A stretch of 64,000 nucleotides of DNA from Tubulanus polymorphus (Eukaryota > Animalia > Nemertea). The notes under the pieces are model-generated. The model made no database searches and was not told where the DNA came from. It saw only the letters and a list, made by a program, of their open reading frames with translations. Made by a program: the position numbers and the translations under genes. The stretch spans positions 6,593,001 to 6,657,000 of the forward strand of contig NC_134035.1 in the NCBI RefSeq assembly GCF_964204645.1. The letters run 5' to 3'. This document shows positions 15,751 to 44,328 of this stretch, one piece after another; the first letter of the stretch is position 1; the number at the start of each line of letters is the position of its first letter.

Positions 15751-15778
15751 ATTATTTGAGTTAAATATAATTAATATC

Positions 15779-19403: not shown

Positions 19404-19419
19404 TTATATAATAAAAAAA

Positions 19420-20742: not shown

Positions 20743-20758
20743 TTATATAATTAAAAAA

Positions 20759-21184: not shown

Positions 21185-21204
21185 TTATTTAGCAAAAAAA
21201 ATTA

Positions 21205-21625: not shown

Positions 21626-21876
21626 TTATTTAGTAAAATAATTATGCATTTATATAGGAGGAATATATTTTTGTTTTGTTTTTCCAAATAATCAATAGTT
21701 AAACTAGATAAAGTAACTGCTAATGTTAATTTTAAAATATCATTGATATCAAATCTATCAACATTAACACTTCCCATTTTGAATACTTTTTTTAATACCA
21801 TTGAATAACCAACAGTTCCAACTGATAGTAATGCTCCATTATATAATCCAGTTATTATCCACTTATTATCACTCAT
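21607..21876 (-). CDS. Small hydrophobic protein (true stop probably near 21650)
   Basis: TAAATG start; homolog 36289-36509. Confidence 0.7.
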   Translation of the reverse strand: MSDNKWIITGLYNGALLSVGTVGYSMVLKKVFKMGSVNVDRFDINDILKLTLAVTLSSLTIDYLEKQNKNIFLLYKCIIILLNKWLLQL

Positions 21877-21879
21877 TTA

Positions 21880-22234
21880 TTTATCAAAAAAATTACTATC
21901 ATCAAAATATTTAGTTAACTTATTTATGATTAATTCAACATTTATTTCATTACTAGTTTCATTTGTATATATTTCAATTATTATTTTTTTTAATATCATC
22001 GATGATAAAATCTTCATCTAATTCATAAAATCTTAAAGATCTTCTAATTAAATTAGTAATCTTTTCTACATTTAAAGTTTCTTTATCTATTGTTTTTTCA
22101 TACTCAAATGTTGTTTCATTAGAAAATGCAATATTTTTGATATGTGTAATTACATCATTAATGTTAAATTTCATTTCTTTCTCACGTTTAAAATCAAACC
22201 CAAAGCATATACTCGGTCCAACAGTTATATTCAT
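21880..22234 (-). pseudogene. Small hypothetical protein, frameshifted
   Basis: ORF 21974-22234; homolog 35928-36284. Confidence 0.65.
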
Positions 22235-22249
22235 TTATATAATGAAAAA

Positions 22250-22952
22250 TTACTCTCTACATCTTATAACTAATTCATATATCACAGGAAAGTTATTTAA
22301 ATCAATTAAGTATCCATTATGATTTCTTATTTCTATAATTTATTTGCGTTCCAAATTGTTTAACATTCTTTAATGGTAAAATATTTAATATACTAGAATT
22401 ACAAATTGCATCTTTAGTTGCTTCAAATGTTTTTGTAGGATCAATTAAATTGCAATAAATATAAAAGTGTGTAAAAGGTATTAAGTTTGGTGTAGCATCA
22501 GCATTGCGTATCCTTACATCTGGGGTTATTCCTAAAATTTTAGCTAAAGGTTTTTTAACTAGAAATTGATGTTGATCTTCATTACCTAATTTTATTCTTA
22601 TTTTATCGGAGCTATCACTTTTAATCAGTCTTAATCCAAATCCAGCAGATGCACCCATTTTCAACCGAGCTCTTCTATTAATTTCCTGCGCTAATGTATC
22701 TAAATTATATAATCCTGGTTTAAGGTAAAGATGAAACCATTCACTTTTATTTCTATCATGAATTAAAAAGACTCTATGTTCAATAGTTTTATCCGATATA
22801 TTGTAAAAAGAATTACATAAACTTATATTTACTAATTTTAAATCTACACAATTCTTGAATTCTCTATCTAATTGTACTAGTAAATTATGAGATTTATAAT
22901 TTGTAAGTTTTCTAGAATCAACAAATATTCTGTATTCTTTTAATTCCGCCAT
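22250..22952 (-). pseudogene. Putative minor capsid (penton) protein with a small 3' deletion
   Basis: 'IFVDSR..ISLCNSFYNI..PGLYN...L...IN..FYIYCNLI..ILNILP..G..INY' pattern resembles Polinton/PLV pentons; lacks 'NLTECDFKPCIPQFNNFKL' seen in element 2. Confidence 0.7.
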
Positions 22953-22969
22953 TTATTTTACATATTTTC

Positions 22970-23323
22970 TTATTCGAAATCTATTTCATGGTGCCCTTTT
23001 GCATTCTTACCTTTGTATACGAAATAGAAATCTCCAGAACATAATTCTTCCAAGTCTTCACTTGATAATCTATGAAATCTATCTGGTAAATATGTTCTGA
23101 ATTTATATGTATTTCCTTTTAATCCTTCATATTCTAAGTGTATAAATAATTTATTTCCATATTTGTTAGTAACTGTATCAATATTTGTAATTAGATATTT
23201 CTTATGGATTGTTAATTCTGTTAACTTCTTAAATTTATAATCTACAGATTTTACATTTGTAGTATCTTTTATTCTATCTAGAAATAATTTGTTGTTCTCA
23301 CTGTGTGTTTGTTTACTCTCCAT
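22970..23323 (-). CDS. Small hypothetical protein, possibly OB-fold nucleic-acid binding
   Basis: Intact ORF; 'KKL.E....KYG.K....LPD....GKN..GHH' shared with 44002-44328; fold is inference. Confidence 0.7.
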   Translation of the reverse strand: MESKQTHSENNKLFLDRIKDTTNVKSVDYKFKKLTELTIHKKYLITNIDTVTNKYGNKLFIHLEYEGLKGNTYKFRTYLPDRFHRLSSEDLEELCSGDFYFVYKGKNAKGHHEIDFE

Positions 23324-23352
23324 TTATAATACATAGTTTTATTAAAATTTGA

Positions 23353-26300
23353 TTAACACGTTAGAATTCTTTTCATTATTTCCTTCTCTTTTGTTTCTTC
23401 TCTTTTAAATTTTAAATATTCATCTAAATTACAACCATAAGCAACTGTATGAATTCCATCATCTAAAATATATCTTTTATCATCAAATGGGTTTAGACTA
23501 ATCTTTTCAATTTCTTCAATAAACATTTCATGATCTTCAGATCTTAAACATCTCATCTTATGTTTTCTAACTTCTTCATTGAATATACAATTGATGTAAT
23601 CTCTGAAATGAATATTCTTTTCTACTACACTTTTGGTTATTCCTTTTAACTTTTTAGCTTCATGTTCTTTAGTTTTATATGAATACATTTTAGATCTAAT
23701 ACCGATGAACTCTATCATTTCTTCACCACCTAATTCATCTTTGAATTTACCGGGAACTTTCTTATTATCATTGCTAAACAATTCATGATCTTTAGGATAG
23801 TTACTGAAATCAAAATGATGTTTTAATGTTTTTAAATCATCTGTTATGTTATCAGTTTTTATCTTTAATATGTAAGAATCGGTATCAAAATATAATATTT
23901 CTATATGTTTTTCTCCAAAAAGTGGTTGTAATACATTATAATAGAATTCATACATTAGTAATTTTGATAATTCTAAAACTGAAGCGCCAACATAGATTGG
24001 TTTATTAAATTTCATTAATGTTCTTCTCATCTTAACTGCAGCTAAATTTTCATCAAATATTCTGTTACCAATGAACTTAGGATATGATTGTAAATGTCTA
24101 ATTCTTTTACCATTACTAACTAACTCAATATCATTTCTATTTCTAATATTTTCACAAGTCTTACCATAGAATGCATTATTCATTAACTTGAAGAAATCTT
24201 TCTCAAAATCAGTTTTAGCTTCAGTTATCTGTTTGGTGTTAAAATCTATATATTTTTCTAACCACTTAGATTGACTGAATGAAATATATCTATGTACTTT
24301 TTTTAGAACCATTCCTTGTTTTAGATAAAACTTTAACATTCTATAATGTACTACATAATTATATTTATCTTCTTGAGTTACCATTAACTTTTCTGTATGA
24401 ATATGATTTTCGGGTTTAATTCTTTTTTGATGATTTGATAATTCTTCATGAGTAACAGTTTTATGTCCTGGACAGTATGCTAGATTTCTAGATTTAAATG
24501 TTTTATCTTCAGGATATTCTAAATCTACAACAAAGAAGTAACCAGTATCTGAATCATCTGCAATATCTAGAATTCTTTTCTTCCAATCAAATTTATCATT
24601 ATATTCATTCTGTAAAACTTCAGTTAATTCAAATACTCCATAAGGTTGTGGTTCCATCATTGCCCAACCATATAAATTATTTGCATCTATATATAATAAC
24701 TTATATCCAGGGTTATCATTTACATTGAAATATCTATCCCCTAATACACCTGAAACTCCTCCTCTTATAGATTTTTCAAATAATAGTAATTGATCTATAT
24801 TTGTTAACAAATCCATTTTTATATCTGTAAATTTTAATCCACAATCCCATGTTAAACCTGGTGATGAATAACAATGACAAGGATCAATGTTAAAATATTT
24901 TAGGTTTACATCTCTAAACCTTTCGAATATATCAGTTAATAATAATACATCTGATTTTAGATATGAATCTACTAATTGTCCATGATTTTCTATTTTGAAA
25001 TGATTCCAAATATTCAATGTTCTATTATATACTTCATCTTTAACATATTCATTTTTTAATTCATCATAGAATTGTTCTTTTAATAATTCAGTTATGCTAA
25101 AATCATTATGATTTTTATAGAAAGAATATGGAATTGCGCCTTTATATCTCATTTATTGGAAATCATCATTATTTGGGTAGTGTTGTTTTAATATTCTTAA
25201 TTCATCATCAACTAATGATTTTGATAAGTTATCTAATGAACTATTTAAAAATCTATATGAATCTATAAATCTTAAACACCCAAATTGGAATGATATAATT
25301 CTCAGATGTTTTAGCTAACATTCTAAATTTATAAGTTGGTATTTTATCTTTAGATCTATTTGAATTTAATCTTTTTATTTCATTATTAATTTCTTCTATT
25401 TTATGGCATAACTGTTTGATGAATAAATGTGCATCATATCCTGATAGATTATGAAATATAACTGGTACAAAGTTAATTTTCTTAGCTTGTAAGTTACAAT
25501 TCTCATGTGCAGCGCCTCTAAACTTTCCGTTCAAATGATCATGGTCTCTTACTATTTTATCTTTATAATTAGATATCTTTTCACAATAATAACATTTACC
25601 TGTAAACACAAATTCTTCTTTATCTTCTTCTGTCATAATTATTTCTATATTTGTATTCAATAATTTACTAAATCTTATTTCATATTCAATTAATAAGTCA
25701 CAAAAATGATTGATAACATTTTCATTTCTATAATGATAATATTCACTTTCAATTAGTTCTAAATAATCAGATTTAATATATAACCCGAAAGCTGCAGCTG
25801 ATTGATGAATCTTTTTAATTGTATTTGTTATTGGTGGTTCATCTGAAAATTTTCATTAGAATTTAATTTCTTTCTTTTATAATATATTTCTTTTCTATCT
25901 TGATCAGTTAGTTCTTTATTTAATGATTCAAAATCTCCATATATAACAAATGGAACTTTATTTTTGTAATCATATTTTTTGAATTCTAATATTTTATCTT
26001 TTTCATTTGGTAAAACTAATTTACAATAATCATGATTTTCACATAATTGTTTATGATTCAATAATGTACTTTCATTACTGAATCTATATAAACATTTTCT
26101 ACAAAGATATATTTTATGGTGATCATTTTCTGATTTAAAAAATAAATCGATTTGTTTAATCCACATATAATGATTCTCATAATATAGTATATCTATAACA
26201 TCGTTTGAATCATAATCTTTTGATAGATATAAAGGTTCTAATGTATAATGTTTTATATTGTTACCTTTCGTATTTGGTAATTTGATTAAATCAAATACAT

Positions 26301-27384
26301 TTATCTTTATATTATTATCTCTTTTTTTTGGGATGTTTTTAATTCTAACAGGATACTTATCTATCTTATAATTATTTTCAAATTGTTTATAATTTGTTAA
26401 TCTATAAGTATGTTTATTATAATCTTCAACTGGGTGTAAACAACTTATTATAGCCCATAGAAAACATTTATCATCTTCATTTAGTACATTTATGACAGCA
26501 TTAGTTTTAAATGGTAGTTTAATATAACTCGATGCTTCAATATCTGGTTCTTTATAATATGATACATTATTTTCATCAATTGGTTTTGATTTAGTTAACT
26601 TATTATATTTTGTGTTATGAACATGTAAAGTCATAAATATTATTTCATCAAATATTAAACCAGATCCTTCAAAATATTTCTCTTCTATTTTAGTTTTTAC
26701 TTCATTATAACATTTAGCTAATTTACCATCTATATGTTGTTTAGATATAATATGTTGTGAATGAGAATTTATATTGTATATTGGTTTATCTTCAGATTTT
26801 ATAAACTTTACTTTAGAAGATATACTAATTTTAGGGTATTCAACATCAGTTATTATTTTTATTATTTCTTTCATATTTTCTAAATGTTTTTTATTTTCTT
26901 CTAATGTTTTTCCTTTATGAAATTTAAACTCAATAGCTGCTGGACCAATATCACTTTTAAATGCTTCGGTCATCTCTATATCTTTTTTATTATCTAATGA
27001 ATTAATATAATTTCTTACATCTTCCATGTATGGTCTTTTATTGTTTAATTTATTTTTTATGCTTTTAATTGTCTTCTGTTTCTTATCATTATCTTTATCA
27101 AAATAATCTTCACCTAAAATATCATTATTCATATTTCTAATATGACTTTTAGATTTTAAATGTTCATTATAATATCTTTTATCACTGAATGATAGATTAA
27201 ATGTATCACATTTGTATGTTTCTTTTTCATTCTTTAATTCATCTAATTTAGTTTCTAATATATCATCTTTATATTCTAGTTTCAATTTATTCTCTAAATG
27301 TGTTTTAGTTTTATTGTGTCTTGCTTTTTGGGATTTATCTATATTGATATTACATGTTGGACAGTAGTACTTATTTGCTTCCAT
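23353..27384 (-). pseudogene. polB: Protein-primed family B DNA polymerase (N-terminal C2H2 fingers, putative vOTU-like domain, endonuclease VII-like insert), frameshifted; intein-free allele
   Basis: ExoI YGDFES, ExoII FHNLSGYD, ExoIII YLKSDV, motif A YIDANNLYGWAM, motif B KLMNNAFYGK, motif C YFDTDS, RSKMY, KGI; CxxC..VRDHDH..G..RG.AH..CNL. Confidence 0.96.
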
Positions 27385-27437
27385 TTTAATACTAATTTTT
27401 TTTTAAAATTGATTTTAGAAGTTCAATGATTTATATC

Positions 27438-27804
27438 ATGTATTATTTCAATCACACTTTACTAACACTTTTAATGTTTAAAAATCAAACTCATACAAAT
27501 ATAAATATTGAAATAATGTTGTAAATATATCTATATATCTATTCTATAAGAGCTCACACTTTTATATTGAATAATCTATCAATTTAAATGTTATTCATGT
27601 AAATGAATATTTTAAGAGTCATAGGGGTAATGGGCTTTCAGGCTAAAGGTTGAAGGGGCGAGTGAGTAAAAAATGAAAATAACAATAATTTACAGTTGAA
27701 TTAGGAGTGTGCGCGACTAATTTAACTGTAAATTATTGTTATTTTTATTTTTTACGAGCTCGACCCTTCGACCTTTGGCCTGAAAGCCCATTACCCCTAT
27801 TACT
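27438..27804 (-). repeat. Right TIR of element 1 with terminal palindrome (27617-27804)
   Basis: Reverse complement of 10311-10678. Confidence 0.95.
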
Positions 27805-28719
27805 AAAGTCGATCCGTAAAAGTGCTCATATCGTCAGGAAAAGCGTTTTTTGACCCGAAAACGTCGTTCAGCGCGAGAAAAGACGTTTTCGTATCAAACA
27901 TTCACCCTATCGGAAAGATGAAAATGTCGATGCGTAAAAGCGCTCAAATCGTCAGGAAAAGCACTTTTCTACCCGAAAACGTCGTTCAGCGCGAGAAAAG
28001 ACGTTTTCGTATCAAATATTCCCCCTATCGAAAAAATGAAAATGTCGATGGGTAAAAGCGCTCAAACCGTCAGAAAAAGCACTTTTCGTCGCGAAAACGT
28101 CGTTCAGCGCGAGAAAAGTCGTTTTTGTATCAAATATTCCCCCTATCGGAAAAACGACAATGTCCATGCGTAAAAACGCTAAAATCGTCAGGAAAAGCAC
28201 TTTTCGTCGCGAAAACGTCGTTCAGCGCGAGAAAAGACGTTTTCGTATCAAATATTCCCCCTATCGGAAAACCGACAATGTCGATGCGTAAAAGCGCTCA
28301 AATCGTCAGGAAAAGCGCTTTTCCACCCGAAAACGTTGTTCAGCGCGAGAAAAGACGTTTTCGTATCAAATGTTCACTCTATCGGAAAAACGACAACGTC
28401 CATGCGTAAATGCGCTCAAATCGTCAGGAAAAGCGCTATTCGACCCGAAAACGTCGTTCAGCGCGAGAAAAGACGTTTTCGTATCAAATATTCCCTCTAT
28501 CGGAAAAACGACAATGTCGATGCGTAAAAGCGCTCAAATCGTCAGAAAAAGCACTTTTCGACGCGAAAACGTCGTTCAGCGCGAGAAAAGACGTTTTCTC
28601 ATCACATTTTCCCCGTATCGGAAAAATGACAAAGTCGATCCGTAAAAGCGCTCCAATCGTCAGGAAAAGCACTTTTCGACCCGAAAACGTCGTTCAGTGC
28701 GAGAAAAGACTTTTTCGTA
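27805..28719. repeat. 118-bp satellite spacer (~7.7 diverged monomers) between the two Polintons
   Basis: Same monomer, in phase with the flanks of both insertions. Confidence 0.95.
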
Positions 28720-28789
28720 AGTAATTGGAAAAGTGGGCTTTCAGATCAGAGGACGAGAGGACGAGACACCACTCATCACCACAAGTAAT
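28720..28789 (+). repeat. Left TIR of element 2
   Basis: Reverse complement of 44638-44707. Confidence 0.95.
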
Positions 28790-28804
28790 TTTTTTTCCTA
28801 ATAA

Positions 28805-31800
28805 ATGGGGGAGAATGAACACCAGCCAGAAAACAATAATGTGAATAAAAATCAATATTATTGCACATATTGTAAAAAATACGTCGTAACATCTAATGAA
28901 ACACGACATGAAAAAACTGCAAATCATATAAAAAATGTAATAGATTTTGAAACTCCAGAAAATTCCAATGAAAGAAAAGAAAGATTAGAAAATATGAATG
29001 TGGATGAAATAAAATGTGAAGTTTGTAATGAATTTATAGTAAAAAGGAATTATAATAGACATCTCGAATCACATAAACACCATCAAAATTTGAGTAATAA
29101 TGTTTTAGGAAAAGATTTTTTTGATGATAAACCTCAAAAAGTAAAAAAACCAAATTCAAAAACTAAATCCATTTCAAATAAACCTTACATGGAAAATGTT
29201 AGAAATTATATTGATTCACTAGAAATAAAAGATACAATTGAAATTTTAGAAACATTACTACATAGTAAAATTGGTCCTGCAGCTATTATATTTAGATTTT
29301 TTAAAGGTACAACAATAGAAGATTATAGTAAATTTAATGAAATAATAGAAAAAATACTAGATTTGATAACAGATGTTGAATATCCAAAAATTAGTATCTC
29401 TGGGAAAGTAAGTTTTATAAAGTCAGAAGAAAAAATGGATTATAATATTCAAACACACTCTGAAGAAATAATTTCAAAAACACAAATAAAAGAGAAGTTA
29501 GAAAAAATATTTGATGAATTTAAACGTCATATTGAAGAAAGATATTTTGAGGGTTCTGGCTTAACATTGAATGAAATTATATATTTAGATTTAAATGTTT
29601 ATAATATAAAAAGAAATACAAAATCAAAAAGTAATAAAATGTTTAAAAATGATTCAAACTTTACAACAGAAAAGGATATTAAAGCATCATCTTATATTAA
29701 ATTACCATTTACAACAAAAGCAGTAATAAATATTTAAAATGAAGATTTTCTATGGTCAATTATTAGTTGCTTACATCCAACACAGGAAAATGTTTGTAGA
29801 ATAACAGATTATCGGAAATATGAAACATTATATAAAATTGATCAATATCCAGTAACTATAAAAATGATTTCTAAAATAGAAAAAGTTAATAATTTAAAAA
29901 TAAATGTATTCGAATTAATGCAATTACCAAAGACAAAAGGTGAACATATTAAAGATTATACATTGGAAGCTTTATATTTAACAGAATATTATGATGATGA
30001 AAATGCTATAGATTTGTTTTATTACAAAAAAGATGAAAATGAACATTATATGTGGTTAAAACAAATTGATTTATTCTTTAGAACAGAAAGTGATTATCAT
30101 CAAAAAATTTATCTATGTAGAAAATGTTTATCTAAATTTATGACTGAGAATACATTATTAAAACATAAAGAATTATGATAATAAAGATTTTTGTAAATTA
30201 ATAATGCCAACAGAAAAAGATTATAAATTGAAATTTACTAATCATAAATTTAAGAATATTGTTCCATTTGTAATTTATGGGGATTTTGAATCGTTGAATA
30301 AAGAATTAACCGATCAAGATAGAAAAGAAATATATAACAAAAAGCAATTATTTAAATCAATGGATAAAGGAAATGAATTAAATGAAGACACAACACAAGA
30401 CCCACCCATTATAAATACAATTAACAAAGTTCATCAAAGAGCTGCTGCTTATGGAATTTATATAAAATCAAATTATCCTGAATTATATGAAAGTCAATAT
30501 ATTTCTTTTAGAGGTGAAAATGTAGTTAATGATTTTTGTAATAAAATGATTGAATTAGAAAGTGATTTTGCAAAATTATTAAACAAAAATAAAAGAATAG
30601 TTATGACAAAAGAAGATGAAATTGATTTTAATTATGCAACTCATTGTTGTTATTGTGAAAAACGTTTTTATTCATTTGATAAAAAAGTTAGAGATCATGA
30701 TCATTTAAATTCAAAATAACGTGGAGCTGCTCATGAAGATTGCAATTTACAAGCTAAGAAAGTTAATTTCGTACCAATATTATTTCATAATTTATCAGGC
30801 TATGATACCCATCTATTTATAAAACAATTATCAGGAAAATTGGGTTCAATTAATCAAGAAATAGAAGAATATAATGCTATGAATGGTGTAAATGTAAGAA
30901 AATATGATTTTAAACTATTAGCTAAAACATCTGAAAATTATATTTCATTTCAATTTGGTTGTATTTGATTTTTAGATTCTTATAGATTTCTAGCAAGTTC
31001 ATTAGATAATTTATCAAAAAGTTTAGTTGATAATGATTTTGTTATAACTCGATATTATTATCCAAAAGACCAAGATTTTAAATTATTGAGATATAAAGGC
31101 GCAATTCCTTATTCATTTTATAAAACACACAATGATTTTAATGTAACAGAATTATTAAGAGATCAATTTTATGATCAATTAAAAGAGGAGTATGTGAAAG
31201 ACGAAGTGTTTAATAGAACATTACATATTTGGAACCATTTTAAGATGAAAAATCATGGTGAATTAGTTGATTTATATTCAAAATCAGATGTTATGATATT
31301 GGCTGACATATTTGAAAAATTTAGAGAAGTTAATTTGAATCATTTTAATGTTGATCCTTGTTATTGCTACCCTAGTCCTGGTTTAACCTGGCAATGTGGT
31401 TTAAAATATACAAATGTAGAATTAGATTTATTAAAAGAACCAGATATGGTTTTATTATTTGAAAAATCAATTAGAGGTGGAATGATGAATATAAATTATT
31501 ATATATTGACGCCAATAATTTGTATGGTTGGGCAATGATGCAACCTCAGCCATATAAAAATTTTATATTAACAGAAGTTGAAAATGATGATAAAACTAAT
31601 TGGGAAAGCGCAATTATGAGTTTAGAATATGAAGCACCAATTGGTTATTTCTTTGTAGTTGATTTAGAATATCCTGAAAATATAAAGTTTAAAACAAGAA
31701 ACTTACCTTATTGCCCAGAACATTTAACTGTAGATGATAGTTATTTAAGTGAATACCAGAAGAAAATAAAACCGAAAGATCATGTTTTTACAGAAAATTT

Positions 31801-33870
31801 AATACTTTCTCAAAATAATAAATACAATTATATTGTTCATTATAGAATGTTAAAATTTTATCTAAAACAAGGAATGAAATTAAAGAAAGTACATAGATAT
31901 ATTGAATTTAATCAATCGAAGTGGTTAGAAAAATATATAGATTTCAATACTCAACAGAGAACCATATCAAAAACAGATTTTGAAAAAGATTTCTTCAAAT
32001 TAATGAATAATAGTTTTTATGGTAAAACATGTGAAAATATTAGAAATAGAAATGATATTGAATTAGTAAATAATTCTGAAAGATTAAGACATTTACAATC
32101 AAGTCCTAGACATTTAGGAAATACAAGATTTGAAGATTATTTAACCGCAGTAAAATTAAAAAGAACGTCAATGAAATTTAATAAACCTATATTCATTGGT
32201 CCAACTGTTTTAGAAGTATCAAAATTATTAATGTATGATTTTTATTATAATGTTTTACAACCACTTTTTGGGGAAAAGCATATTGAATTATTATATTTTG
32301 ATTCTGTAACAGCTGACACCCCAATATTATTAAAATGTAATGATAAAATATTGATAAGAAGAATTTCAGAAATAATTCCAAAACAAAATGAATGTTATAT
32401 TTCATATGGTGAAAAAGAATTAATACAAATAAATGGATTAATGGATGTTTGGACAATAAATGGATGGAAAAAATTAAAGAATATTATTAGACATAAAACA
32501 AATAAGAAAATCTATAGAGTTAGAACTAAATTAGGGTTTGTTGATGTTACAGAAGACCATAGTTTAATTAAACGAAATGGCGATGAAATAAAACCAACTG
32601 ATTTAAAAATTGGAGATGAATTATTACATTAAAGATTTTTCCAAAGAATGAATCATATTAATATTAAGGATTTTTCATGAGTGATGGTTCAGCAGGTGTG
32701 TATAATTATGTTAATCGCACTCAATATTGCTGGTATTTATGCAATCAAGACTTAAAATTATTAGAAAGAATAAAGAAATTCTGTGAAGAAGTTTATCCAA
32801 ATAAAACATTTAAAATCATGGATGTTATGAAATCATCGCAATGTTATAGAATACATGTGAATAATCCTAAAGATTTTGCTATAAAATATAATGACGAATT
32901 CCATATTCATGCAATAGTGAAAAGTAATACTTCAACTAAAGAAAAGATAGTGCCAGATTATGTATTAAATGCAAAAAATAATTTAAGAAAATGGTTCTTC
33001 ATTGGATTCTATGCCGCAGATGGCACTAAAAAATTTACAAAGGATAAAAAGATAACCTTTGCACAGAAAGGAAAAGTTGCTATATCAGGGTTAAATATAT
33101 TATGTAATTCATTAGGCTTCAATACGAATATTGGGTTGATTAAATCTAAACCAAATTGCTTGAATTTAAGCCACACAGAAAAAGATTTAACTGAAGAAGT
33201 TAAAGATTTATTTGAAATATATAACCCAACAGATTATGTTTATGATTTATCAACTGAAGATGGTACATTTAACTGTGGATTTCCATTAATAGCCCAAAAT
33301 ACCGACGCCTACATACTAAAAATCAAGACAAATGACATAACAAAAGACTTAAAAACATTAAAACATCATTTTGATTTTAGCAATTATCCCAAAGATCATG
33401 AACTATTTAGCAATGATAATAAAAAGATTCCTGGTAAGTTTAAAGATGAATTAGGGGGTGATGAAATGATTGAATTTGTTGGGATAAGAAATAAAATGTA
33501 TAGTTACAGAACAAAAGATCATGAAGCTAAAAAGTTAAAAGGAATAACAAAACATGTGGTTGATAAACATATAGAATTTCAAGATTATATAAAGTGTTTA
33601 TATAACTCAATTGTAATGAAACATAAAATGAATTGTTTAGGATCAGAGGATCACGAGATGTACATTAATGAAGTTGAAAAAACTACTTTGAATCCATTTG
33701 ATGATAAAAGGCATATTTTAGATGATGGTATAAAAACATTACCTTATGGCCATAAAAACATAAAATCAATATCATCATACTCGAAATCACTATTGGCTTC
33801 TTCATTTTCATTTAATTGTTCTTGTATAATTTGTTTAGGTTCTTCCATTTCATTTTTCTCATTTCAATAA
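28805..33870 (+). pseudogene. polB: Protein-primed family B DNA polymerase with intein; several stops, frameshifts and small deletions
   Basis: ORFs 28805, 29864, 30204, 31086, 31520 and 32677 are colinear with the element 1 polymerase; YGDFES, FHNLSGYD, DANNLYGWAM, KLMNNSFYGK, YFD|TD. Confidence 0.96.
32303..33300 (+). mobile_element. Intein with LAGLIDADG homing endonuclease inserted in PolB motif C; frameshifted
   Basis: YFD|SVTADTPILL (block A), DVTEDHSL (block B TxxH), GFFMSDGS and GFYAADGT (two LAGLIDADG helices), YVYDLSTEDGTF (block F), LIAQN|T (terminal Asn, +1 Thr); removal restores YFDTD. Confidence 0.95.
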
Positions 33871-34217
33871 AGTTCTATCTTGTTCCACATTTCATCTCGC
33901 TCTCTTTGTTTCTTTTTGTTTGTTAATTCATCAAATGGAATTATAATAGCTATGTTTAAATAATTTACAATCTTATTTAAAAAGAATTCATTGAATTTAT
34001 TGAATCTGTTATTCTATTTTCCAAATGATACATTAATATTTGTTTAAATATTTTTTTTATATTTTCCATATCTTCTTCTGTTAATTTAGGTTTTTCATAA
34101 TAATCGTTAAATAATAAATATAAATACATTTTCTTTTGTTTTGTGTTAAACGTTGATGGAATAATTGTTTTATAATATCTTTTTTAGTTATTTCACCATT
34201 TTTATTTTCTATTATTT

Positions 34218-35075
34218 TCATTTTTTCAAGCCATTGCATATATTCTGATCTTCTATAGAAAATATTTTAGAAATTTCATCTAGATAATTTAATTTTGGAT
34301 CTATGAGAAAATTTCTAGTTTTTTCTTCACCCCATAAATTCTTTTGCCATCCACAATCAACACAAAATAACACAGTACCTTCTTGTCTTAAGGTCGCGTA
34401 TTTACATTGTGGGCATTTTTGTTTATAATTTCTTGGTAATAGATCTCCATTAAGCTCTTGGTATTTTCTTACGTTTTCTTTATGTTTTATTGTTCTATTA
34501 TGTAGATTTGAATTACTTGTTGTAATAATCAATTTACAATATTTACAATAATATGTTTTTCTTGTTAATTCATTATATTGTTTTTCTAACTTTTCAACTG
34601 TTTCTTTATTATCTGGTAACGTTTTCTCATATTTTATTTTTTCTAATATATTATTTTTTCTTTCATTGAATTCAGTTTCAAATTTATTAGAAATTTTATC
34701 TATATGTGCTTTACGATATTGATGATTCTCCCAATCTTCTATATTTTCAGGGCTATATTTTATTCGACAAGGCTCGCAGAAATGATCTTTTATATTATCC
34801 TTATCATAGAATATGAAAGGTCTTTTCCAAATAATTTCAGGTTCAAGTTCAACAGAATTACTATTACTTTCATTACTATCAACATTAGCCATTGCGCCAT
34901 TAATTTTACACTTCTCTGAATGTTTTTTAACATAATTTCTTGAGAATAATTTATTACATTTTGGGCAGTTTAGTTTAGGGGGTTTATAATTTTCATCATG
35001 TTTTTTCATATGTCGAGCCATATTACTTTTTCTTAGAAGTTCACCACAAATTTCACATCCTATCTTCTCATCCAT
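34218..35075 (-). CDS. Multi-zinc-finger protein (C2H2 fingers and a Cys4 ribbon); a broken tail probably extends to ~33760
   Basis: CEIC..HMKKH, CPKC..HSEKC, CEPC..HQYRKAH, CKYC..HNRTIKH, CPQC..CVDC. Confidence 0.8.
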   Translation of the reverse strand: MDEKIGCEICGELLRKSNMARHMKKHDENYKPPKLNCPKCNKLFSRNYVKKHSEKCKINGAMANVDSNESNSNSVELEPEIIWKRPFIFYDKDNIKDHFCEPCRIKYSPENIEDWENHQYRKAHIDKISNKFETEFNERKNNILEKIKYEKTLPDNKETVEKLEKQYNELTRKTYYCKYCKLIITTSNSNLHNRTIKHKENVRKYQELNGDLLPRNYKQKCPQCKYATLRQEGTVLFCVDCGWQKNLWGEEKTRNFLIDPKLNYLDEISKIFSIEDQNICNGLKK

Positions 35076-35139
35076 TTATTAAGGAAAAATTTTTTTAAAA
35101 TTAATTTTTAGTGATGAGCGGTTATTTATGTTATAAATA

Positions 35140-35911
35140 ATGGTAGAATTAAAAGAATACAGAATATTTGTTGATTCAAGAAAACTTACAAATTATAAAT
35201 CTCATAATTTACTAGTACAATTAGATAGAGAATTCAAGAATTGTGTTGATTTAAGATTAGTAGATATAAGTTTATGTAATTCTTTTTTATAACACATCGG
35301 ATAAATCTATTGAACATAGATTGTTTATGATTTTTGATAGAAATGCCGATGAATGGTATCATATATTTATAAGACCAGGATTAAATAATTTAAAAACATT
35401 AGCGAAAGAAATTAATAGAAGAGCTAGGGCAAAAATGGGCGCGGCTGCTGGATTTGTAATTAAATTTTTAAAAAGTGATATCAATAATAAAGTAAGAATA
35501 AAGTTAGACAAAGACATAAATTTAATTTTAAAACATAAATTTTTAGTTAAAAAACCTATGGCAAAACTGTTAGGAATTAATCTAGATAAACTTTATTCAA
35601 ATGTTGATACTACGCCAAATATAATACCTGTTACGCACTTCTATATTTATTGTAATTTAATTGATCCTACAAAAACTTTCGAAGCAACTAAAGATACAAT
35701 TTGTAATTCTAGTATACTAAATATTTTACCATTAAAAAATGTTAAACAATTTGGAACGCAAATAAATTATAATTTAACAGAATGTGATTTTAAACCTTGT
35801 ATTCCTCAATTTAATAATTTTAAATTAGAAATAAGAAATCATAATGGATATTAAATTGATTTGAATAACTTTCCTGTAATATATGAATTAGTTATAAGAT
35901 GTAAAGAGTAA
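35140..35911 (+). pseudogene. Putative minor capsid (penton) protein, frameshifted
   Basis: Homolog of 22250-22952; includes ORF 35321-35854. Confidence 0.7.
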
Positions 35912-35927
35912 TTTTTTCACTATATAA

Positions 35928-36284
35928 ATGAATATAGCTGTTGGACCGAGTTTATGTTTTGGATTTGATTTTAAACGTGAGAAAGAAATGAATTTAACGT
36001 TAATGATGTAATTACACATATCAAAAATATTGCATTTTCTAATGAAACAACATTAGAGTATGAAACAACAATAGATAAAGAAACTTTAAATGTAGAAAAG
36101 TTTACTAATTTAATTAGAGAATCTTAAGAATAAGATTTTATGAATTAGATGAAGATTTTATTATAGATGATATCAAAAAAATAATAATTGAAATATATAC
36201 AAATGAAACTAGTAATGAAATAAATGTTGATTTAATCATAAATAAGTTATCTAAATATTTTGATGATAGTAATTTTTATGATTA
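35928..36284 (+). pseudogene. Small hypothetical protein, disrupted
   Basis: Near-identical to 21880-22234. Confidence 0.65.
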
Positions 36285-36288
36285 ATAA

Positions 36289-36509
36289 ATGAGTGATAAT
36301 AAGTGGATAATAACTGGATTATATAATGGCGCATTACTATCAGTTGGAACTGTTGGTTATACAATGGTATTAAAAAGGTATTCAAAATGGGAAGTGTTAA
36401 TGTTGATAGATTTGATATCAATGATATTTTAAAATTAACATTAGCAGTTACTTTATCTAATTTAACTATTGATTATTTAGAAAAACCAAAATATATTCCT
36501 CCCATATAA
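36289..36509 (+). pseudogene. Small hydrophobic protein, frameshifted
   Basis: MSDNKWIITGLYNG... as in 21607-21876. Confidence 0.7.
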
Positions 36510-36533
36510 ATACATAATTATTTTACTAAATAA

Positions 36534-36957
36534 ATGGCTTCTGCAGTTATAACTATTATAGGATCGGCAATTGTTAACGCTTTAGCATTTACTGGTGGTG
36601 CTTATTTATTTAAACATATTGATAAAAATGGATCATTAACAGAACAAAAAAAGGCATAACTTAGCATTAGAGAAATATAATAAAGCAGCAGAAGAATATA
36701 GAGAAAAGAGACAAAACTATATGTATTATATTAACAAAGAATTATATGATCAGAAGATTTCACATAGAGATTTTCAATCAGTTGATGATGCAATGAGTTT
36801 ATATAACGCGGTAAGCAATAAAGAAAAATTACATCTATACAAACCTAAATTATCAGATTATTATACCCCAAGTAATGAACAGAAGAAATATGAAATAATG
36901 TGGATTTTAGGCGGAACTGTTATTGTTATATTTGTTGCTTATAAGTTTACTAATTAG
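36534..36957 (+). pseudogene. Small membrane protein, frameshifted
   Basis: MASAVITIIG... and ...WILGGTVIVIFVAYKFTN as in 21205-21625. Confidence 0.8.
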
Positions 36958-36977
36958 TAATTTTTTTTGTTAAATAA

Positions 36978-37401
36978 ATGGAAGATAAAGTTGATAATAT
37001 TGATATTATTCCTCATGATATAAATAAAACTAAATTAAAAATATATTCAGAAAAACAAATATTAGAATTTGAAAATGACTTAAAAGTTAAAAAGAAAAAA
37101 TATTTAAAAGGTAAAATTATATATTATTTGATTATAAGTGGTTCGGTTACGATTAGTTCTGTAATAACTTTTCTAGCAATATTTTCACCATTAACACCTT
37201 TAGCTATATCAATTGGCGTACTAGGATTAAGTTCAAGTGTTTTAACTGGTATAGGTTCAAAATTAAATATAAAAGGTAATAAAGAAAAAATTAAAACTAA
37301 TTAATTAATTAAAGAATACACTAGATTATATAATAAGTTTAAATGGCAATAAAACAGTTGAAGAACAAGATAAATTATTAAAAGAATTAATAAATTATTA
37401 A
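36978..37401 (+). pseudogene. Two-TM membrane protein with 3' deletion
   Basis: Homolog of 20759-21184. Confidence 0.8.
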
Positions 37402-37417
37402 TTTTTTAGTTATATAA

Positions 37418-38053
37418 ATGGCAGATAGTTTTCCAAAAGCTTTCCAATATAATAAATCAATTAAATATAATATTCCTGCAATAGATTTTAATAAAGATAT
37501 TACATATAGAAATGTTTTAAATTCATTAATTGATTTATATATTTATGTTACTGAAAGTAATAATTTTCATGTAAAGATGGAAAATATATTTCATGTGTAT
37601 ACAATTAAAAACATTGTAAGATATCAAAATTATTTAGATAAATTACATATTAGATTAAATTATTGTATAGGCCCTAATCTATTAATTATTTCTAATGATT
37701 TAGTATTATAGATGGGAAACATAATTGGTTATAATAATCTAATTAAAACTGCAACAATAAATAATTCATTTGGAATAAATGATATAAATGAAAAGAGTAT
37801 TACTGCTCCAAAATTAATGGAAGGTGGAAAAAATAAAAAACATATTCAATCAACAGAAACTAAAACAAAAGATATTAAATTGGATAATGATTCTAAAATA
37901 AAAGATTACAATACATCAGAAAATATTAAAACTGATAATATTCAACATGATATAATTAAAACTGATAATGATAATAAATTCCATGAAAATACTAATTTAG
38001 CTTTAACTTGTATAGGAATTGTTATAGGAGGAATATTATATTTTAAATTTTAA
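37418..38053 (+). pseudogene. Conserved Polinton protein with ~700-bp internal deletion
   Basis: Both ends match 19420-20742; the middle is missing at ~37600. Confidence 0.8.
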
Positions 38054-38069
38054 TTTTTTTATTATATAA

Positions 38070-39452
38070 ATGGATGTAGAAGGTGGAGTAGATATTCAGT
38101 TGGATCATTTAGATGAACCTGGTATAAGTGATGAACAACCACCTGATTTTGGTGAAATAAGTTTTAATGACGGTAATGAGCCAGGACGTAATTCTAATTC
38201 AACTACACCTGAATTTATTGATAAAACACGTTCAAAGATAAGTATTGAAAATGAAGTACCAGAATTAACAGAAAAAAAATTTAAATATAATGAAATTGCT
38301 AGTGATTTTAAACCAATGTTAAAAAGATCTGGTTTCAATATAACAAATAAAGGTATGGATTATTTAGTAGAAGATTTGAAATGTTTAAATGGCGATTATT
38401 ATTGGAAATTGAAAGGCGACTATTATTTTAAGATTTCTTCTAATAAAAGTCTCGATAAAATAATAACAAAATCAACTTTTAATTTATTAAAACCAGATAG
38501 AATTAAGAAAATCATTAATGATATTATAACTGATGTTACACAAGAAGAAAGAGATGATAATATAAGAGAATTTGAAAAAAGAAATGATTATTTTTTGAAG
38601 ATAATTAATGAAAATTTAGAACCAGAAACAACTTCTGAACAGAATAAAACTTCCAAAACTAGTAAACCTAAATCAACCGAAGTTCAAACTGAAAAACTTT
38701 TACAAAATGGGTTACTTGATGCAACAAATCAAGAATTAGAAGATTTAAATATATTTTCTGATGAAGCAATTAGAGAAATTATTAGTATAAGAAATGAAGC
38801 TGATAAAATTGCACATAATAAAAGTAAAAGTGATATTAAAATTAGAACTTTAGAAAAAGAATTAACTGATAAAAATAAAGAAATAGAACAACTAAAGTCT
38901 GATCTTGATAGTCAAGTAATTGTTGAAATGGAATATAGGCAAAAAGAATTACGTTTAGAAAAAGAAATTAATAATTTAAAAGATAATTTAGAAGTACAGA
39001 AAGAAGAAATAAAATTATTATTAAAATCATATGATTATAATATTAATAGATTAAAAGTTATTTTTAAAGATTTGTTGATAAAACCAAATTCTGAAATATC
39101 ATTGAAAGATAGAATAAAGTTATTATTTAAATTAGAAGGAATAACAATTCTTTCAATTCTAACAGCTGTAACTATGTTATTTACAACAATTGGTTTAGCA
39201 ATATCAAATGCTTTAAAATCTACTCCTACTCCAAATAAACCGGATAAACCCCCGAATGATAATAATTCTATACAAGATAAAGTTAAAGATGGTTTGAAAA
39301 AATTAGCAAAATATTTATGGGAACTATCTAAAAAATCTGCTGCAGCTTTACCAGGAATTATTGCATCAATTGTTGGTTTTATATTGAAATCTGCTGGGAA
39401 TATTCTTAACTTTGCTGCTGAACATATTATTTTATTTTTTGACGCCTTATAA
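38070..39452 (+). CDS. Coiled-coil protein with C-terminal TM helices; last helix cut by a foreign insertion
   Basis: 460-aa ORF homologous to 17937-19403. Confidence 0.85.
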   Translation: MDVEGGVDIQLDHLDEPGISDEQPPDFGEISFNDGNEPGRNSNSTTPEFIDKTRSKISIENEVPELTEKKFKYNEIASDFKPMLKRSGFNITNKGMDYLVEDLKCLNGDYYWKLKGDYYFKISSNKSLDKIITKSTFNLLKPDRIKKIINDIITDVTQEERDDNIREFEKRNDYFLKIINENLEPETTSEQNKTSKTSKPKSTEVQTEKLLQNGLLDATNQELEDLNIFSDEAIREIISIRNEADKIAHNKSKSDIKIRTLEKELTDKNKEIEQLKSDLDSQVIVEMEYRQKELRLEKEINNLKDNLEVQKEEIKLLLKSYDYNINRLKVIFKDLLIKPNSEISLKDRIKLLFKLEGITILSILTAVTMLFTTIGLAISNALKSTPTPNKPDKPPNDNNSIQDKVKDGLKKLAKYLWELSKKSAAALPGIIASIVGFILKSAGNILNFAAEHIILFFDAL

Positions 39453-39802
39453 AACGTTACCATTATGAAACCTAAACAATGCTAACCATTCAGCGTCATT
39501 TTACAAACGACAGCCGTAAATCGATGTGCAAAACGTCACAGGTTTATGTGTACACAAACAAGCTATCTGGCAAAATATTATTGACATAGATGTAGAATGG
39601 CTTCCTGTGATTATATAATGACCTATATTTGAACGTCGAAATGTTATATTGCATTGAATATCATTAGAAGACGTTTTGTTTTAGTAAAGGATGTATGATT
39701 ATATCAGAAGCGGCAGGCATAAATATAAATGATAAGTAAATCGGATTATTCGGTTAAATGGCGGATGTATACACGATGCGGAAGTCTGATATAAAAGTCA
39801 GA
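39442..39802. other. ~360-bp foreign insertion replacing the 5' end of the MCP gene
   Basis: Homology to element 1 stops after 'catattattttattttt' and resumes at 'ccgatataaaagtaa'; higher GC than flanks. Confidence 0.75.
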
Positions 39803-40873
39803 CCGATATAAAAGTAACTGGTCATGATAATAATTATGTTGTCGATAATGTTGGGAGATATTTGATTAAAAAATTAACTATAAAGATTGGTCCAGAAACA
39901 GTTTTCTCATTAGATGATTATAATTTATTTATGCATTATAAAGATTTATGGTTAACTAAAGAAAATAGATTTAATATGATATTTCAAGGCATTCAATCGG
40001 AAAACCATAATAAATTAAGATCTGAAGCCAATAATGCAGTAGTAACTAGTGCCGCAGATAATTTGATAAAAAAGATTTATGGAAGCAAATATAAAATTCC
40101 ATTAGACTTTGAATTGATGAATAATAATGCACCTTTATATAAATATGTAATTCAAGAACATATTATATTTGAGATAACATTTGCTCCTGTAAATGAAATT
40201 GTATTATCTAGCGTTGTTAAAGATATGGGTTATAAATTATCGAATATATGTTTAGAATATGACACAGTAACTAATGACAATAATGCTAGCACAATTCAAA
40301 CTCAATACAATCAAGGATTTTCATTATTATATGATTATATTGATAAATTTAAAACTGTAACTATTAATGCAAATGATGAAATAATTAATGAGAATATTAA
40401 CTCCCCAAGAAGATCTATTAAAGGTATATTAATATTTTTTACCATTGCAACATATTATAATGGCACAATAAAGGTAGATAATTATTATAATCCTAAAATA
40501 ACAAAAGTAGAAATAACTATCGAAGGAATAGCAAATAAAATATTTTGTCAAGGAATGAGAATGATTGATCAATGGCCAGAAATTAGAAAACATTTTATGA
40601 ATGAAAAAGTAAAATCATTTGAAAATTGAAATTTGAAATATTAATCAAATTGATTATTATACCGGCAATAAATATGCATTATGGTTAGATTTTAGAACAA
40701 CAGAGGATAATTCATTACATGGTTCTGGGAAAAAACTACAGAACACAAAAGATGGAATACAATTATTCATGAAAAAGAAAAAAGGAAGCTTAAATTTTAA
40801 AATGCACATTTATATTATATCTGACGCACAATTAAATATTGTAAATTCACAATTAGATAGTATTCAATATTAG
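39803..40873 (+). pseudogene. Putative major capsid protein, 5'-truncated and disrupted
   Basis: ORF 39862-40629 plus tail, near-identical to 16695-17940. Confidence 0.75.
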
Positions 40874-40903
40874 AAATATAAAGTTAAAATTAAGGATATA
40901 TAA

Positions 40904-42032
40904 ATTGGTGGTAAAAAAACTCCTAATACTAAAGAACAATATTTAAGAAATTTATATTACAACCCTGAGAGTTCGGTTGCTTATTCTTCTACCAAAAATA
41001 TATGGCGTCAAGTAAAACAAGATAAATTAGATAAGATAATCCCACGAAATTTAGTTAAATATAAAGATATAAATGAATTTGTGTTAGAACAACCAACATA
41101 CACAACACATAAAAAAATTGTTAGAAAATATAAAACTCGTAAAACTATGGTAAGTTATGTAGATCAACAGTGGCAAGGAGATTTAATTGATATGAAAAAT
41201 GTTAAGAAAGAAAATGATGATTATTGGTGGATCTTAAACATAATTGATATTTTTAGTCGTTATGTATGGAGCTTCCCACTTTATAGAAAAGATGCTGTAC
41301 AAACATCAAATGTTTTAAGAAAATTTCTTTCGGATGATAAACTAAAACCAGAAAAAATACAATTTGATGATGGAAAAGAGTTTGATAATTCACTTGTTCA
41401 TGAACTCTTAGACAATCATAATATTAAATATTTTTTCAACAAAATCGGATAAAAAAGCAGCAGTTGTTGAACGATTTAATAGAACATTAAGAACAAGAAT
41501 GTGGAAATATTTTACAGCAAATAATACTTTTAAATGGATTGATGTTTTACCAAAATTGATAGAAGGATATAATAATTCTTATCATTCTTCTATTGGAATG
41601 AAACCTATTGATGCTAGAAAACCTGAAAATGCTGAAATTGTTTGGAATAATTTATATGGAGCATTTCTTGTAGATGATTTTGGTGAACCTAGATTTAAAG
41701 TTGGTCAAAATGTTAGAATTTCTAAGTATAAAAAGATATTTGATAAAGGATACGATCGAAATTTTACTAGAGAATTATATAAAATAAAAAAGGTTATAAC
41801 AACAAAACCATATGTCTATAAATTAGAAGATTTAGATAGTGAAGAAGTTGATGGCTACTTTTACAAAGAAGAATTGAGTTTAACTACTGAAAATCTAGAA
41901 CAAGAATATAAAATTGAAAAAGTATTAAAAACAAAAACTGTTAAAAGAAAAAAATATTCTTTAGTAAAATGGGTTGGATGGCCAGATAAATTCAATGAAT
42001 GGATATTATCAAGTAAAATTAAAAATATATAA
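40904..42032 (+). pseudogene. int: rve integrase with C-terminal chromodomain, frameshifted
   Basis: WQGDLIDM, IIDIFSRY, QFDDGKEF, VERFNRTLR; tail 'EYKIEKVLK...LVKWVGWPDKFNEWI'; start codon appears mutated. Confidence 0.93.
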
Positions 42033-42641
42033 ATGAATAAAGAATTATTTATATTTGAGCCTCATAATATGTTAATTTCTGGCGTAACAAATTGTGGAAA
42101 AACTTATTCTATATTAGATTTATTAGAAACTGTTTATGAAAACTATTTTGATAATATAGTATTATTTTGTCCAACATATGAATTTAATCAAACTTATGAT
42201 AGAAATATTACTAGAAATAATAAATTTATTATATTAGATCCTAAAACAGTAAAAGAAAATTTAGATAATTGTATTAAAATAGCAATAGATATTTATAAAG
42301 GATCAAATACATTATTCATTATAGATGATTGTGCTAATCTACATGATTCAAAAGTTAGAGAGAGTGAGTTATGCTATTTCGTTTTTTCTGGCAGACATTT
42401 TGGGATAACAACTTGGGTTTTAAATCAAAAATATAATTCAATTGTTAAAGACTTTAGAGAAAACATTAGATTTCTAGTTTTATTCTACAATAAAGATAGA
42501 AAATCGATGAAAAATGCACTTGAGGAAAATGATATTATTCCACATGATTTACATAATGAATATATGGATAAGTTGAAAAATATTAAAAGATCAAAATTAC
42601 TATTTAGATTACAACACCCATTTAAAAATGAATTTATTTAA
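42033..42641 (+). CDS. DNA packaging ATPase (A32-like)
   Basis: GVTNCGKT, FIIDD, GRH. Confidence 0.93.
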   Translation: MNKELFIFEPHNMLISGVTNCGKTYSILDLLETVYENYFDNIVLFCPTYEFNQTYDRNITRNNKFIILDPKTVKENLDNCIKIAIDIYKGSNTLFIIDDCANLHDSKVRESELCYFVFSGRHFGITTWVLNQKYNSIVKDFRENIRFLVLFYNKDRKSMKNALEENDIIPHDLHNEYMDKLKNIKRSKLLFRLQHPFKNEFI

Positions 42642-42928
42642 ATTCAACTAGCTTGTTAATCTAGTTGAATTCTAGTTACATTCTAGTTGAATTCTAGTTA
42701 TTGGTATTTGTAACAAAAATCAACTAGATTTAACAATATTTCAACTAGCTTGTTAATCTAGTTTAATTCTAGTTACATTCTAGTTGAATTCTAGTTGTTA
42801 GTAGTTGGAACAAAAATCAACTAGATTTAACAAGATATAAACAAAAACAACAATATTTCAACTAGCTTGTTAATCTAGTTGAATTCTAGTTACATTCTAG
42901 TTGAATTCTAGTTGCAACATCACAACTA
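42642..42928. repeat. Three ~100-bp units built of CTAG-centred sub-repeats
   Basis: 'ttcaactagcttgttaatctagttgaattctagttacattctagttgaattctagtt' at ~42643, ~42740, ~42857. Confidence 0.85.
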
Positions 42929-42945
42929 ATTTTTTTGTTATATAA

Positions 42946-43488
42946 ATGGTAGGTGAAAAGAAAATAAAATCTAAAAATGGTGATGTTCCAATTGAAAAAA
43001 CTTTAGATGATTTAGGAATAACAGAAAACAAATTAATTCAAGATAATGGTGCTTTAAATAATGTTACAACAAATAATAATTATGAATATTATCTTTATTG
43101 TAAACATCAATTAGAAATATTAATAGCATCTGGAAAATGTAAAAATTTTGTCGGTAAAAATTTAACTTATAATGAATTAGATACAATGAAATCAGATGAA
43201 ATTATTAGATTATTTAAGATTTATGAAGCCGCGAGAACAGCTAGAATTAATGACGCGATATCAGAAAATGTAGTAAAAGGTTATAGTAAATTATGTAATT
43301 ATATACTACCAATTGAAGATGAAAATAGATTATATTCCGATTTAAAAAATGATTATTTAGTTATGACTGAATTAAATAAATGGATTGGATATTTATCATT
43401 TCAATTAGGTGGATTTATGACATTATTATCAACTGGGGTTATAACATTTTCAAATATTGAAAGTAAAAATATTTCTATAATAAATTAG
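42946..43488 (+). CDS. Conserved protein of unknown function
   Basis: Homolog of 12704-13306. Confidence 0.85.
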   Translation: MVGEKKIKSKNGDVPIEKTLDDLGITENKLIQDNGALNNVTTNNNYEYYLYCKHQLEILIASGKCKNFVGKNLTYNELDTMKSDEIIRLFKIYEAARTARINDAISENVVKGYSKLCNYILPIEDENRLYSDLKNDYLVMTELNKWIGYLSFQLGGFMTLLSTGVITFSNIESKNISIIN

Positions 43489-43851
43489 CGAGGTGGAAGA
43501 AGTGAAGGAATTAACTGTGAAGAAAAAACCGAGATCACAGTAACAAATTGAATGGTCTCGGCAATTAGGAATTAAATCACAAGAATATAAAAAAGCTGTA
43601 AAAGAAAAAATAAGTAATACAAATGTTAATAAAAATAGTGAAAATATGGTTATTTCTACTCCTTCTAATGATAGAATATTTGATAAATGTTTATATTTTA
43701 CAGTTGGATTTGTAATTGTATTCATTTTGATTTGTGTAATTGGTATAAGAAATCAAATAAAATTCATGATATTAATAATTCTGAAACAACTGCTATCAAA
43801 AATGAAAATAATTCTGAAATTCCAAAATTGATTATAAAAAAAATGGATTAA
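43484..43851 (+). pseudogene. Small basic protein with TM helix, disrupted
   Basis: Homolog of 13299-13655; 'LYFTVGFVIVFILICVIGI'. Confidence 0.55.
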
Positions 43852-44001
43852 TATTTTAGAAAAAAAGCAAAAAAAATAATTTTTTTAAATTAATTGAATA
43901 TCTCACTACTTTTGTTTATCTATGCGGAGCAATTAAATTGTCCAGATAAGTCATTTCGGATTCTAGATATTCATTATTTTTATTGATTTATTTTGTTTAA
44001 T

Positions 44002-44328
44002 TTAATCAACAATTTCTAAATCATGATGGCCATCTTCATTTTTTCCATGATAGATTATTTTAAATCCTTCTGAATCTTATAATTCCTCTGTACTCAATGA
44101 AACCCATTTATCAGGTAAAAATACTTTAAATTCTCGCGATGTACTAACATTGCAGTAGCTTAAATTAGCTGATACTTTCTCTCCGTATTTAGTTTTTATC
44201 TTTTCTAATTTCAATATTTTATGTTCAATTTCTTTTGTAACATCAACTAACTTTTTTATTTCAAATTGTTTTTTTGCTGGTTTTATTCTGTTATTTATTG
44301 TTGCTAAGAATGCTTTTCTATCTCCCAT
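44002..44328 (-). pseudogene. Homolog of 22970-23323, with premature stop
   Basis: KKL.D..KYGEK..FLPD..LSTEEL*, continuing to GKNEDGHHDLE. Confidence 0.7.

Follow-up and report, generated by a model that had tools for sequence, protein, structure and literature searches.

A 998-bp insert in the window (the whole stretch of 64,000 nucleotides that we analysed) is a homing intein, here in a decayed state, that sits in a Polinton protein-primed DNA polymerase (pPolB), and we consider it likely that this kind of intein entered Polintons once, from a giant-virus-type PolB, and then spread by homing between Polintons. Sequence comparison establishes the intein and nuclease domains, the insertion site, empty alleles in the same species, a single clade of Polinton inteins, and a mismatch between the divergence of the intein and that of the polymerase. 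At this level of evidence, Polinton polymerases do harbour a lineage of pol-c inteins, one without precedent in the literature searched.

The intein occupies 32303–33300 on the plus strand and splits motif C at D|TD in the pPolB of the element that we call Polinton 2. The window frame reads ...IELLYFD|SVTADTPILL...DVTEDHSL... up to a stop at 32630–32632, and the second half of the intein continues in another frame, starting at 32668, as GFFMSDG...GFYAADG...YVYDL...LIAQN|TDAY. Ser1 lies at 32303, the last Asn at 33298–33300, and the +1 Thr at 33301. The N-terminal Hint region (32303–32629), with block B (TEDH) at 32549–32560, is 72% identical to that of a relative, P0003, and 62% identical to that of another, P0001. 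TIGR01445 intein_Nterm is matched by the first 109 codons at 37.2 bits (E 4.5e-9, against a cut-off of 24.5), and Pfam Intein_splicing scores 17.9 against the N half, under its cut-off of 35.8. The LAGLIDADG homing-endonuclease domain (32668–33180), with motifs GFFMSDG at 32668 and GFYAADG at 33004, matches LAGLIDADG_3 at 27.2 bits (cut-off 22.5), and the C-terminal Hint blocks F and G (VYDL...AQN) with the +1 Thr lie at 33235–33303. An AlphaFold model of the second half, made with 46 sequences, has a pLDDT of 86.6 and resembles I-DmoI, PI-PkoII, and PI-SceI in a fold search (E ~1e-5); its best fold matches in BFVD are Pandoravirus and phycodnavirus polymerases. The initial annotation had described a full intein splitting motif C of a Polinton pPolB, and this is borne out by the sequence, by the Hint and LAGLIDADG matches above cut-off, and by an empty site.

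The boundaries have two independent supports. Polinton 1, the other element in the window, has an empty site that reads ILYFD|TDSY, and inverted-repeat arms stop at both junctions; separately, 21 reads skip exactly 998 bases. The features of a class 1 intein are present, namely Ser1, a block-B TxxH (TEDH), a block-F Asp, the terminal Asn, and the +1 Thr, and VYDL...N|T is found in the window and in five unbroken relatives. Two LAGLIDADG motifs with acidic residues and a two-domain fold are present as well. The insert is thus confirmed as an intein of class-1 type, for which splicing is predicted, and its nuclease as a two-motif LAGLIDADG. A class 3 intein is ruled out by Ser1 and the block-F Asp, and an intein of a host gene is ruled out because the insert sits within an element bounded by TIRs and target duplications (TSDs). 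The Gln reported at the penultimate position of the window intein is real and is uninformative: this residue is Lys in 108, His in 82, Ser in 7, and Ile in 1 of 198 relatives, counts that rule it out as a special feature. It is His in P0004, P0017, and P0027, and both the block-F His and the penultimate His are absent from the window and P0001 inteins. The GC content of the intein (26%) is close to that of the element (24%), so composition gives no hint of a recent arrival from a different source.

The two Polintons are related and lie in opposite orientation, each within a 118-bp satellite. Polinton 2 (28720–44707, plus strand, 16 kb) has 70-bp TIRs (AGT...ACT) and the 6-bp target duplication TTCGTA (28714–28719 and 44708–44713). 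Polinton 1 (10311–27804, minus strand, 17.5 kb), which is without the intein, has 368-bp TIRs and the target duplication AAAGTC (10305–10310 and 27805–27810), and the two insertions are ~900 bp apart. The intein host gene (28805–33762, plus strand), broken by stops and frameshifts, was delimited by tblastn to P0003; its weak PF03175 match and ~20% identity to the Alpha type fit a Beta-type polymerase. The empty homing site YFD|TDS of the Polinton 1 pPolB lies at 23872–23895 on the minus strand, with 12 bases left of the junction in common with Polinton 2, and the polymerase cores of the two elements are 74% identical. Polinton 2 also encodes, on the plus strand, a candidate major capsid protein (39790–40626; weak Capsid_N match, E 0.0099), an rve integrase with a chromodomain in two frames (40904–42029; Pfam), and an A32-like packaging ATPase (42033–42638; Pox_A32, E 6e-12), and the integrase and A32-type ATPase are found in each of the two elements. 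The capsid candidate has no relatives among viral_contigs, and the model of its Polinton 1 copy (pLDDT 34.6) is unusable. An adenain-like protease gave no Pfam match among the scanned ORFs, which did not include all short or broken ORFs, and no motif match; Rfam gave no matches in the window. By their TIRs, 6-bp TSDs, pPolB, rve integrase, and packaging ATPase, both elements are Polintons/Mavericks. The two Polintons possibly target the 118-bp satellite, the Polinton 2 integrase having a chromodomain.

Several other features of the window were noted. The DNA identity of the two Polintons is mosaic, at 88–91% in structural-gene blocks, 72% in the polymerase, and 76% in the integrase-ATPase section, which suggests module exchange. 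Polinton 1 carries a free-standing HNH/endonuclease-VII-like gene (11828–12493, plus strand; phrog_1035, E 1.4e-14; 47 phage records) outside the stretches common to both elements. A candidate minor capsid gene occurs in both (22320–22952, minus strand, and 35270–35851, plus strand). A zinc-finger ORF of Polinton 2 (34221–35075, minus strand) stands tail-to-tail with the polymerase, and at that place Polinton 1 has a 117-aa ORF (22973–23323) of unassigned kind. Outside the Polintons there is a 3.76-kb duplicated unit with 31-bp tandem arrays (499–1850 and 4262–5860; 1908–6841). The flanks are CpG-rich (observed/expected 1.05–1.5, versus 0.6 in the Polintons). An internally deleted Ty3/gypsy-like remnant lies at 7968–9516 on the minus strand with a PNMA-like gag (Pfam E 0.0013, below cut-off), directly followed by a peptide that we take to be integrase-tail-like. 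A search with the gag gave no matches, and none of 10 window ORFs has an entry in the collection searched.

The host is probably an animal, as judged from the PNMA-like gag remnant, the large satellite arrays, and a Beta-adintovirus-like gene set. We also presume that several window ORFs resemble animal Polinton ORFs. Giant viruses with pol-c inteins infect mostly protists, and it is conceivable, if rather unlikely, that the same element with the same history resides in a protist, oomycete, or fungus, in which case the point about an intein in an animal genome lapses. According to 10.1101/2023.08.22.554363, HNH-type pPolBs occur in oomycetes too, and PMC10710043 places viral intein-bearing PolBs on algal and labyrinthulid nuclear scaffolds. 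Against a host of this kind stand the gag remnant, even at a score below cut-off, with the satellite arrays, and the virion genes of the Beta-adintovirus-like set, which are apparently restricted to animals according to PMC8502044.

The window copy of the intein carries two lesions within 32630–32667 on the plus strand, a single stop at 32630 followed by a linker gap near 32658–32666 with a change of frame, and against the 354-aa intein of P0003 it lacks ~64 nt. The Polinton 2 polymerase gene is broken outside the intein too, where it has another three stops and no fewer than two frameshifts. We mapped reads of run X5, which has the same species label and comes from another individual and from a study other than the single one behind the four listed runs with the window stretch, which may be the source of the window; 1,934 million letters were read, and 3,259 reads were placed at 80% likeness. 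At the stop, 224 of 225 X5 reads differ from the window, and at the two sides of the gap 129 and 130 reads continue with other letters, so both lesions are private to the window copy. The initial description of a dead 998-bp copy holds for this copy only, with its stop and gap. No net frameshift is common to 10% or more of the X5 reads, and the sole indels at this level are a compensating pair; these short reads span no single whole copy, and lesions below 10% are invisible to them. Among the polymorphic intein sites at intermediate frequency, 11 of 19 listed fall at third codon positions (p=0.024), a weak result since only 40 of 223 rows were counted.

The same reads reveal filled and empty alleles side by side. 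Mean X5 depth is 207 within the intein versus 594–734 in three flanking bins (ratio 0.28–0.35), which puts the intein in ~30% of similar polymerase copies, and 86 reads join the flanks directly, among them the 21 that skip exactly 998 bases. Depth corresponds to ~11 intein copies per haploid genome if the genome is 100 Mb and to 107 if it is 1 Gb, counts that include free forms and fragments. An assembly artefact is ruled out by the reads of a separate study, which extend over the intein as well as over junctions of both types. In 32 X5 reads from empty alleles (32306–33310), the motif C +1 codon differs from the usual Thr codon; these are possibly homing-resistant variants.

At least four more lineages of Polinton polymerase carry unbroken relatives of the intein. 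P0001, a 1,603-aa pPolB with an unbroken 350-aa intein (YLD|S...KN|TDS), came up when the second half of the intein was used as query, and a search with the P0001 intein returned 1,443 proteins, whose best 120 comprise 111 RNA-primed PolBs, 5 pPolBs (P0001, P0003, P0004, P0017, and P0027, all with the intein in frame), and 4 others. The closest non-Polinton relatives lie in RNA-primed PolBs of giant-virus type. The unbroken intein-bearing pPolBs are P0001, P0003, the P0004 family, P0017/P0136, and P0027; none is annotated as an intein-bearing Polinton gene, and they are described merely as "hypothetical protein". A representative search gave 550 matches (best P0138, 73%), including 7 short fragments with a pPolB intein as best match, and a pattern scan of metagenome contigs gave 4 matches, one of them a pPolB (L018, with one frameshift). 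No intein-bearing Polinton was found in viral_contigs. The only named neighbour among the intein relatives is Mimiviridae sp. ChoanoV1 (P0044), and the same intein allele occurs in 15 IMG/VR loci, 13 of them labelled GVMAG. P0001 has a strong PF03175 match (E 9e-32), and its insert is presumably VSR-like; it fits the Alpha class as described in PMC8502044.

P0011, P0012, P0013, and P0048 are giant-virus-type PolBs with two inteins 2 residues apart in motif C (D|TD|S), and some of them have a third at motif B. P0139/P0276, encoded on a 47-kb contig, is a Pol-delta-like polymerase that has a pol-c intein and, at its C-terminus, a zinc finger. Related inteins lie within type II topoisomerase-like proteins (P0042, P0148, P0199, and P0215), where the P0042 site, EGD|S, is similar to the polymerase site. 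The giant-virus PolB inteins of L001 (855–5963), L017 (895–6573), and L019 (3–1676) have visibly decayed nuclease motifs, unlike the Polinton inteins.

In every tree the pPolB inteins form a single clade, with SH-aLRT 100 in the large tree of 193 rows (192 distinct inteins of 300–440 aa, from 198, plus the window row) and 100/100 in trees of 58, 20, and 41 rows. The 41-row tree was rooted with 8 non-allelic (site-B) inteins as outgroup and contained no archaeal pol-c inteins of known origin. The window intein groups with pol-c inteins against these 8 at 100/100, and in the rooted tree the Polinton clade is nested within the pol-c inteins of PolBs. It falls outside them in 0 of 200 bootstrap trees, but a topology in which PolB inteins form a clade and the Polinton inteins stand apart is not rejected by an AU test (p=0.086). 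P0139 is sister to the Polinton inteins at 99/92 in the 58-row tree, a position not recovered in two other trees, so we do not name a donor. The direction from a giant-virus-type PolB to Polintons is favoured by these trees, not proven. The initial annotation had proposed such a move, and the nearest non-Polinton relatives do belong to giant-virus-type PolBs, but it was not a one-off capture by Polinton 2: the intein is an established Polinton lineage in several divergent pPolBs, so the jump from a giant virus would be older and may have taken place earlier in another host.

Within Polintons, the intein and the polymerase disagree in divergence. Between the window and P0001 the exteins are 20% identical and the inteins 47%, which points to transfer between the classes Alpha and Beta. 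The window and P0001 inteins group at 99/94 and 96/89; P0001 is placed at 83/68 under a mixture model, and a clade of Beta-type inteins that leaves P0001 out passes an AU test (p=0.19), so that we are less sure of the exact branch of the Alpha/Beta transfer. We think it improbable that the intein is instead old in pPolBs, inherited by vertical descent since the ancestor that Alpha and Beta have in common, lost in most lineages, and never homing afterwards. The single Polinton clade would suit such descent, as would the two AU results, which leave room for P0001 as sister to all Beta-type inteins or for Polinton inteins outside PolB, and the window and P0003 are close in both intein (63%) and extein (58%). 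Under vertical descent, nevertheless, the intein (47%) would need to have changed much less than the surrounding polymerase core (20%). It is further opposed by the coexistence of filled and empty alleles among near-identical polymerases in two species-level sets, and by the nuclease, whose acidic residues are both kept in 13 of 13 pPolB intein rows. It is very improbable that different Polintons each acquired the intein independently from giant viruses, with no spread between Polintons: deep Polinton intein lineages are 43–50% identical, little above their 37–45% identity to viral inteins, but they form one clade at 100/100 in three trees and share the end FN[CS]GFPL, seen in 14 pPolB proteins versus 2 of 221 PolB proteins.

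The second set with filled and empty alleles is the P0004 cluster, which has 136 members on contigs of up to 1 Mb; among the 15 listed there are 7 filled and 5 full-length empty alleles. Filled alleles depart from empty ones at 8 of 20 residues beside the site, and upstream at 1–16 of 1,031 residues for four of the five empty alleles and at 43–50 for P0134. The filled flank resembles that of L018, and co-conversion with a donor lineage as the source would fit the pattern. These differences could also be due to escape variants or to adaptation to splicing, a reading allowed by the empty alleles, which too differ from one another beside the site (3–5 of 20).

We propose the following cycle for single entry followed by homing. 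From an unbroken copy the polymerase would be made as a precursor, and splicing would follow the class 1 chemistry of Ser1, +1 Thr, and last Asn: Ser1 would shift its bond from N to O, the +1 Thr would attack, and the last Asn would cyclise, rejoining motif C and restoring the catalytic aspartates. Since the intein splits motif C, replication is predicted to depend on splicing. Within one nucleus, the LAGLIDADG domain would cut a further Polinton at its empty TAT-NNN-GAY|ACN-GAY site, and the intein with some flank would be copied during repair of the cut. Giant-virus sites share this core with the Polinton empty site, and motif C, being the one stretch common to RNA-primed and protein-primed PolBs, would permit the first jump as well as later ones between Alpha and Beta. 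An integrated multi-copy family would offer a standing supply of empty targets within one genome. A fuller account, which we judge to be as likely as not, has a giant-virus intein that truly splices and that homes actively in an animal germline, where its integrated hosts number tens to hundreds; it would have crossed between Alpha and Beta and would be the first in a protein-primed polymerase.

The pol-c inteins of Mimivirus, Nucleocytoviricota, and archaeal PolBs, as treated in PMC549080, are alike in site, Ser1, block-B Thr and His, terminal Asn, +1 Thr, two-motif LAGLIDADG, and length (~340–360 aa). The same source defines pol-c at YGD|TDS, common to Mimivirus and archaea, in agreement with the initial annotation's YGD|TD. 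The Polinton inteins, which are 38–45% identical to those of giant-virus-type PolBs, differ from the inteins of that source in residing in the protein-primed polymerase of an integrating element instead of an RNA-primed PolB, in a varying −2 residue (YFD, YLD, YMD, SSD), and in forming a separate clade. The window elements are like Polintons/Mavericks and Beta-class adintoviruses, as presented in PMC8502044 and 10.1101/2023.08.22.554363, in their TIRs, 6-bp target duplication, rve integrase, A32 ATPase, candidate capsid gene, and pPolB with an HNH/EndoVII-like insert; the available portions of these two sources contain no mention of a polymerase intein, and the window Polintons differ in that no protease gene was found. 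A passage of PMC11071308 suggests that nuclease inserts (HNH, VSR) in Polinton pPolBs stem from intein invasions. Those inserts are likewise nuclease domains inside a Polinton polymerase, but the passage names no splicing domain, whereas the window has Hint and LAGLIDADG at the catalytic motif. The endogenised intein-bearing viral PolBs of Klebsormidium, Tetrabaena, and a labyrinthulid, from PMC10710043, also put a viral polymerase intein on a nuclear scaffold; they are giant-virus polymerases in algae and a protist, whereas the intein in the window belongs to a transposon family that has many copies and both kinds of allele, filled and empty. In our search of PMC-CC and bioRxiv, no protein-primed polymerase, of a Polinton or otherwise, was described with an intein, and InBase, Repbase, and subscription journals may hold a precedent. 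A motif search of the supplements of PMC8502044 (without its sequence file), PMC11131425, and PMC10748475 gave no matches.

An intein family in Polinton polymerases is a new host class for inteins. A survey of eukaryotic inteins (PMC5784728) has viral inteins only in large DNA viruses, and a 2021 review has inteins absent from metazoan genomes (PMC8529194), a rule to which the present case would be an exception if the host is an animal. At the level of sequence, the intein also documents an encounter of Polintons with giant-virus-type polymerases in one compartment, a point relevant to whether Polintons behave as viruses or virophages. With a multi-copy family that has filled and empty alleles in one genome, the homing cycle may be measurable by long reads alone, and the jump between polymerases that are 20% identical would be a test of how relaxed homing can be.
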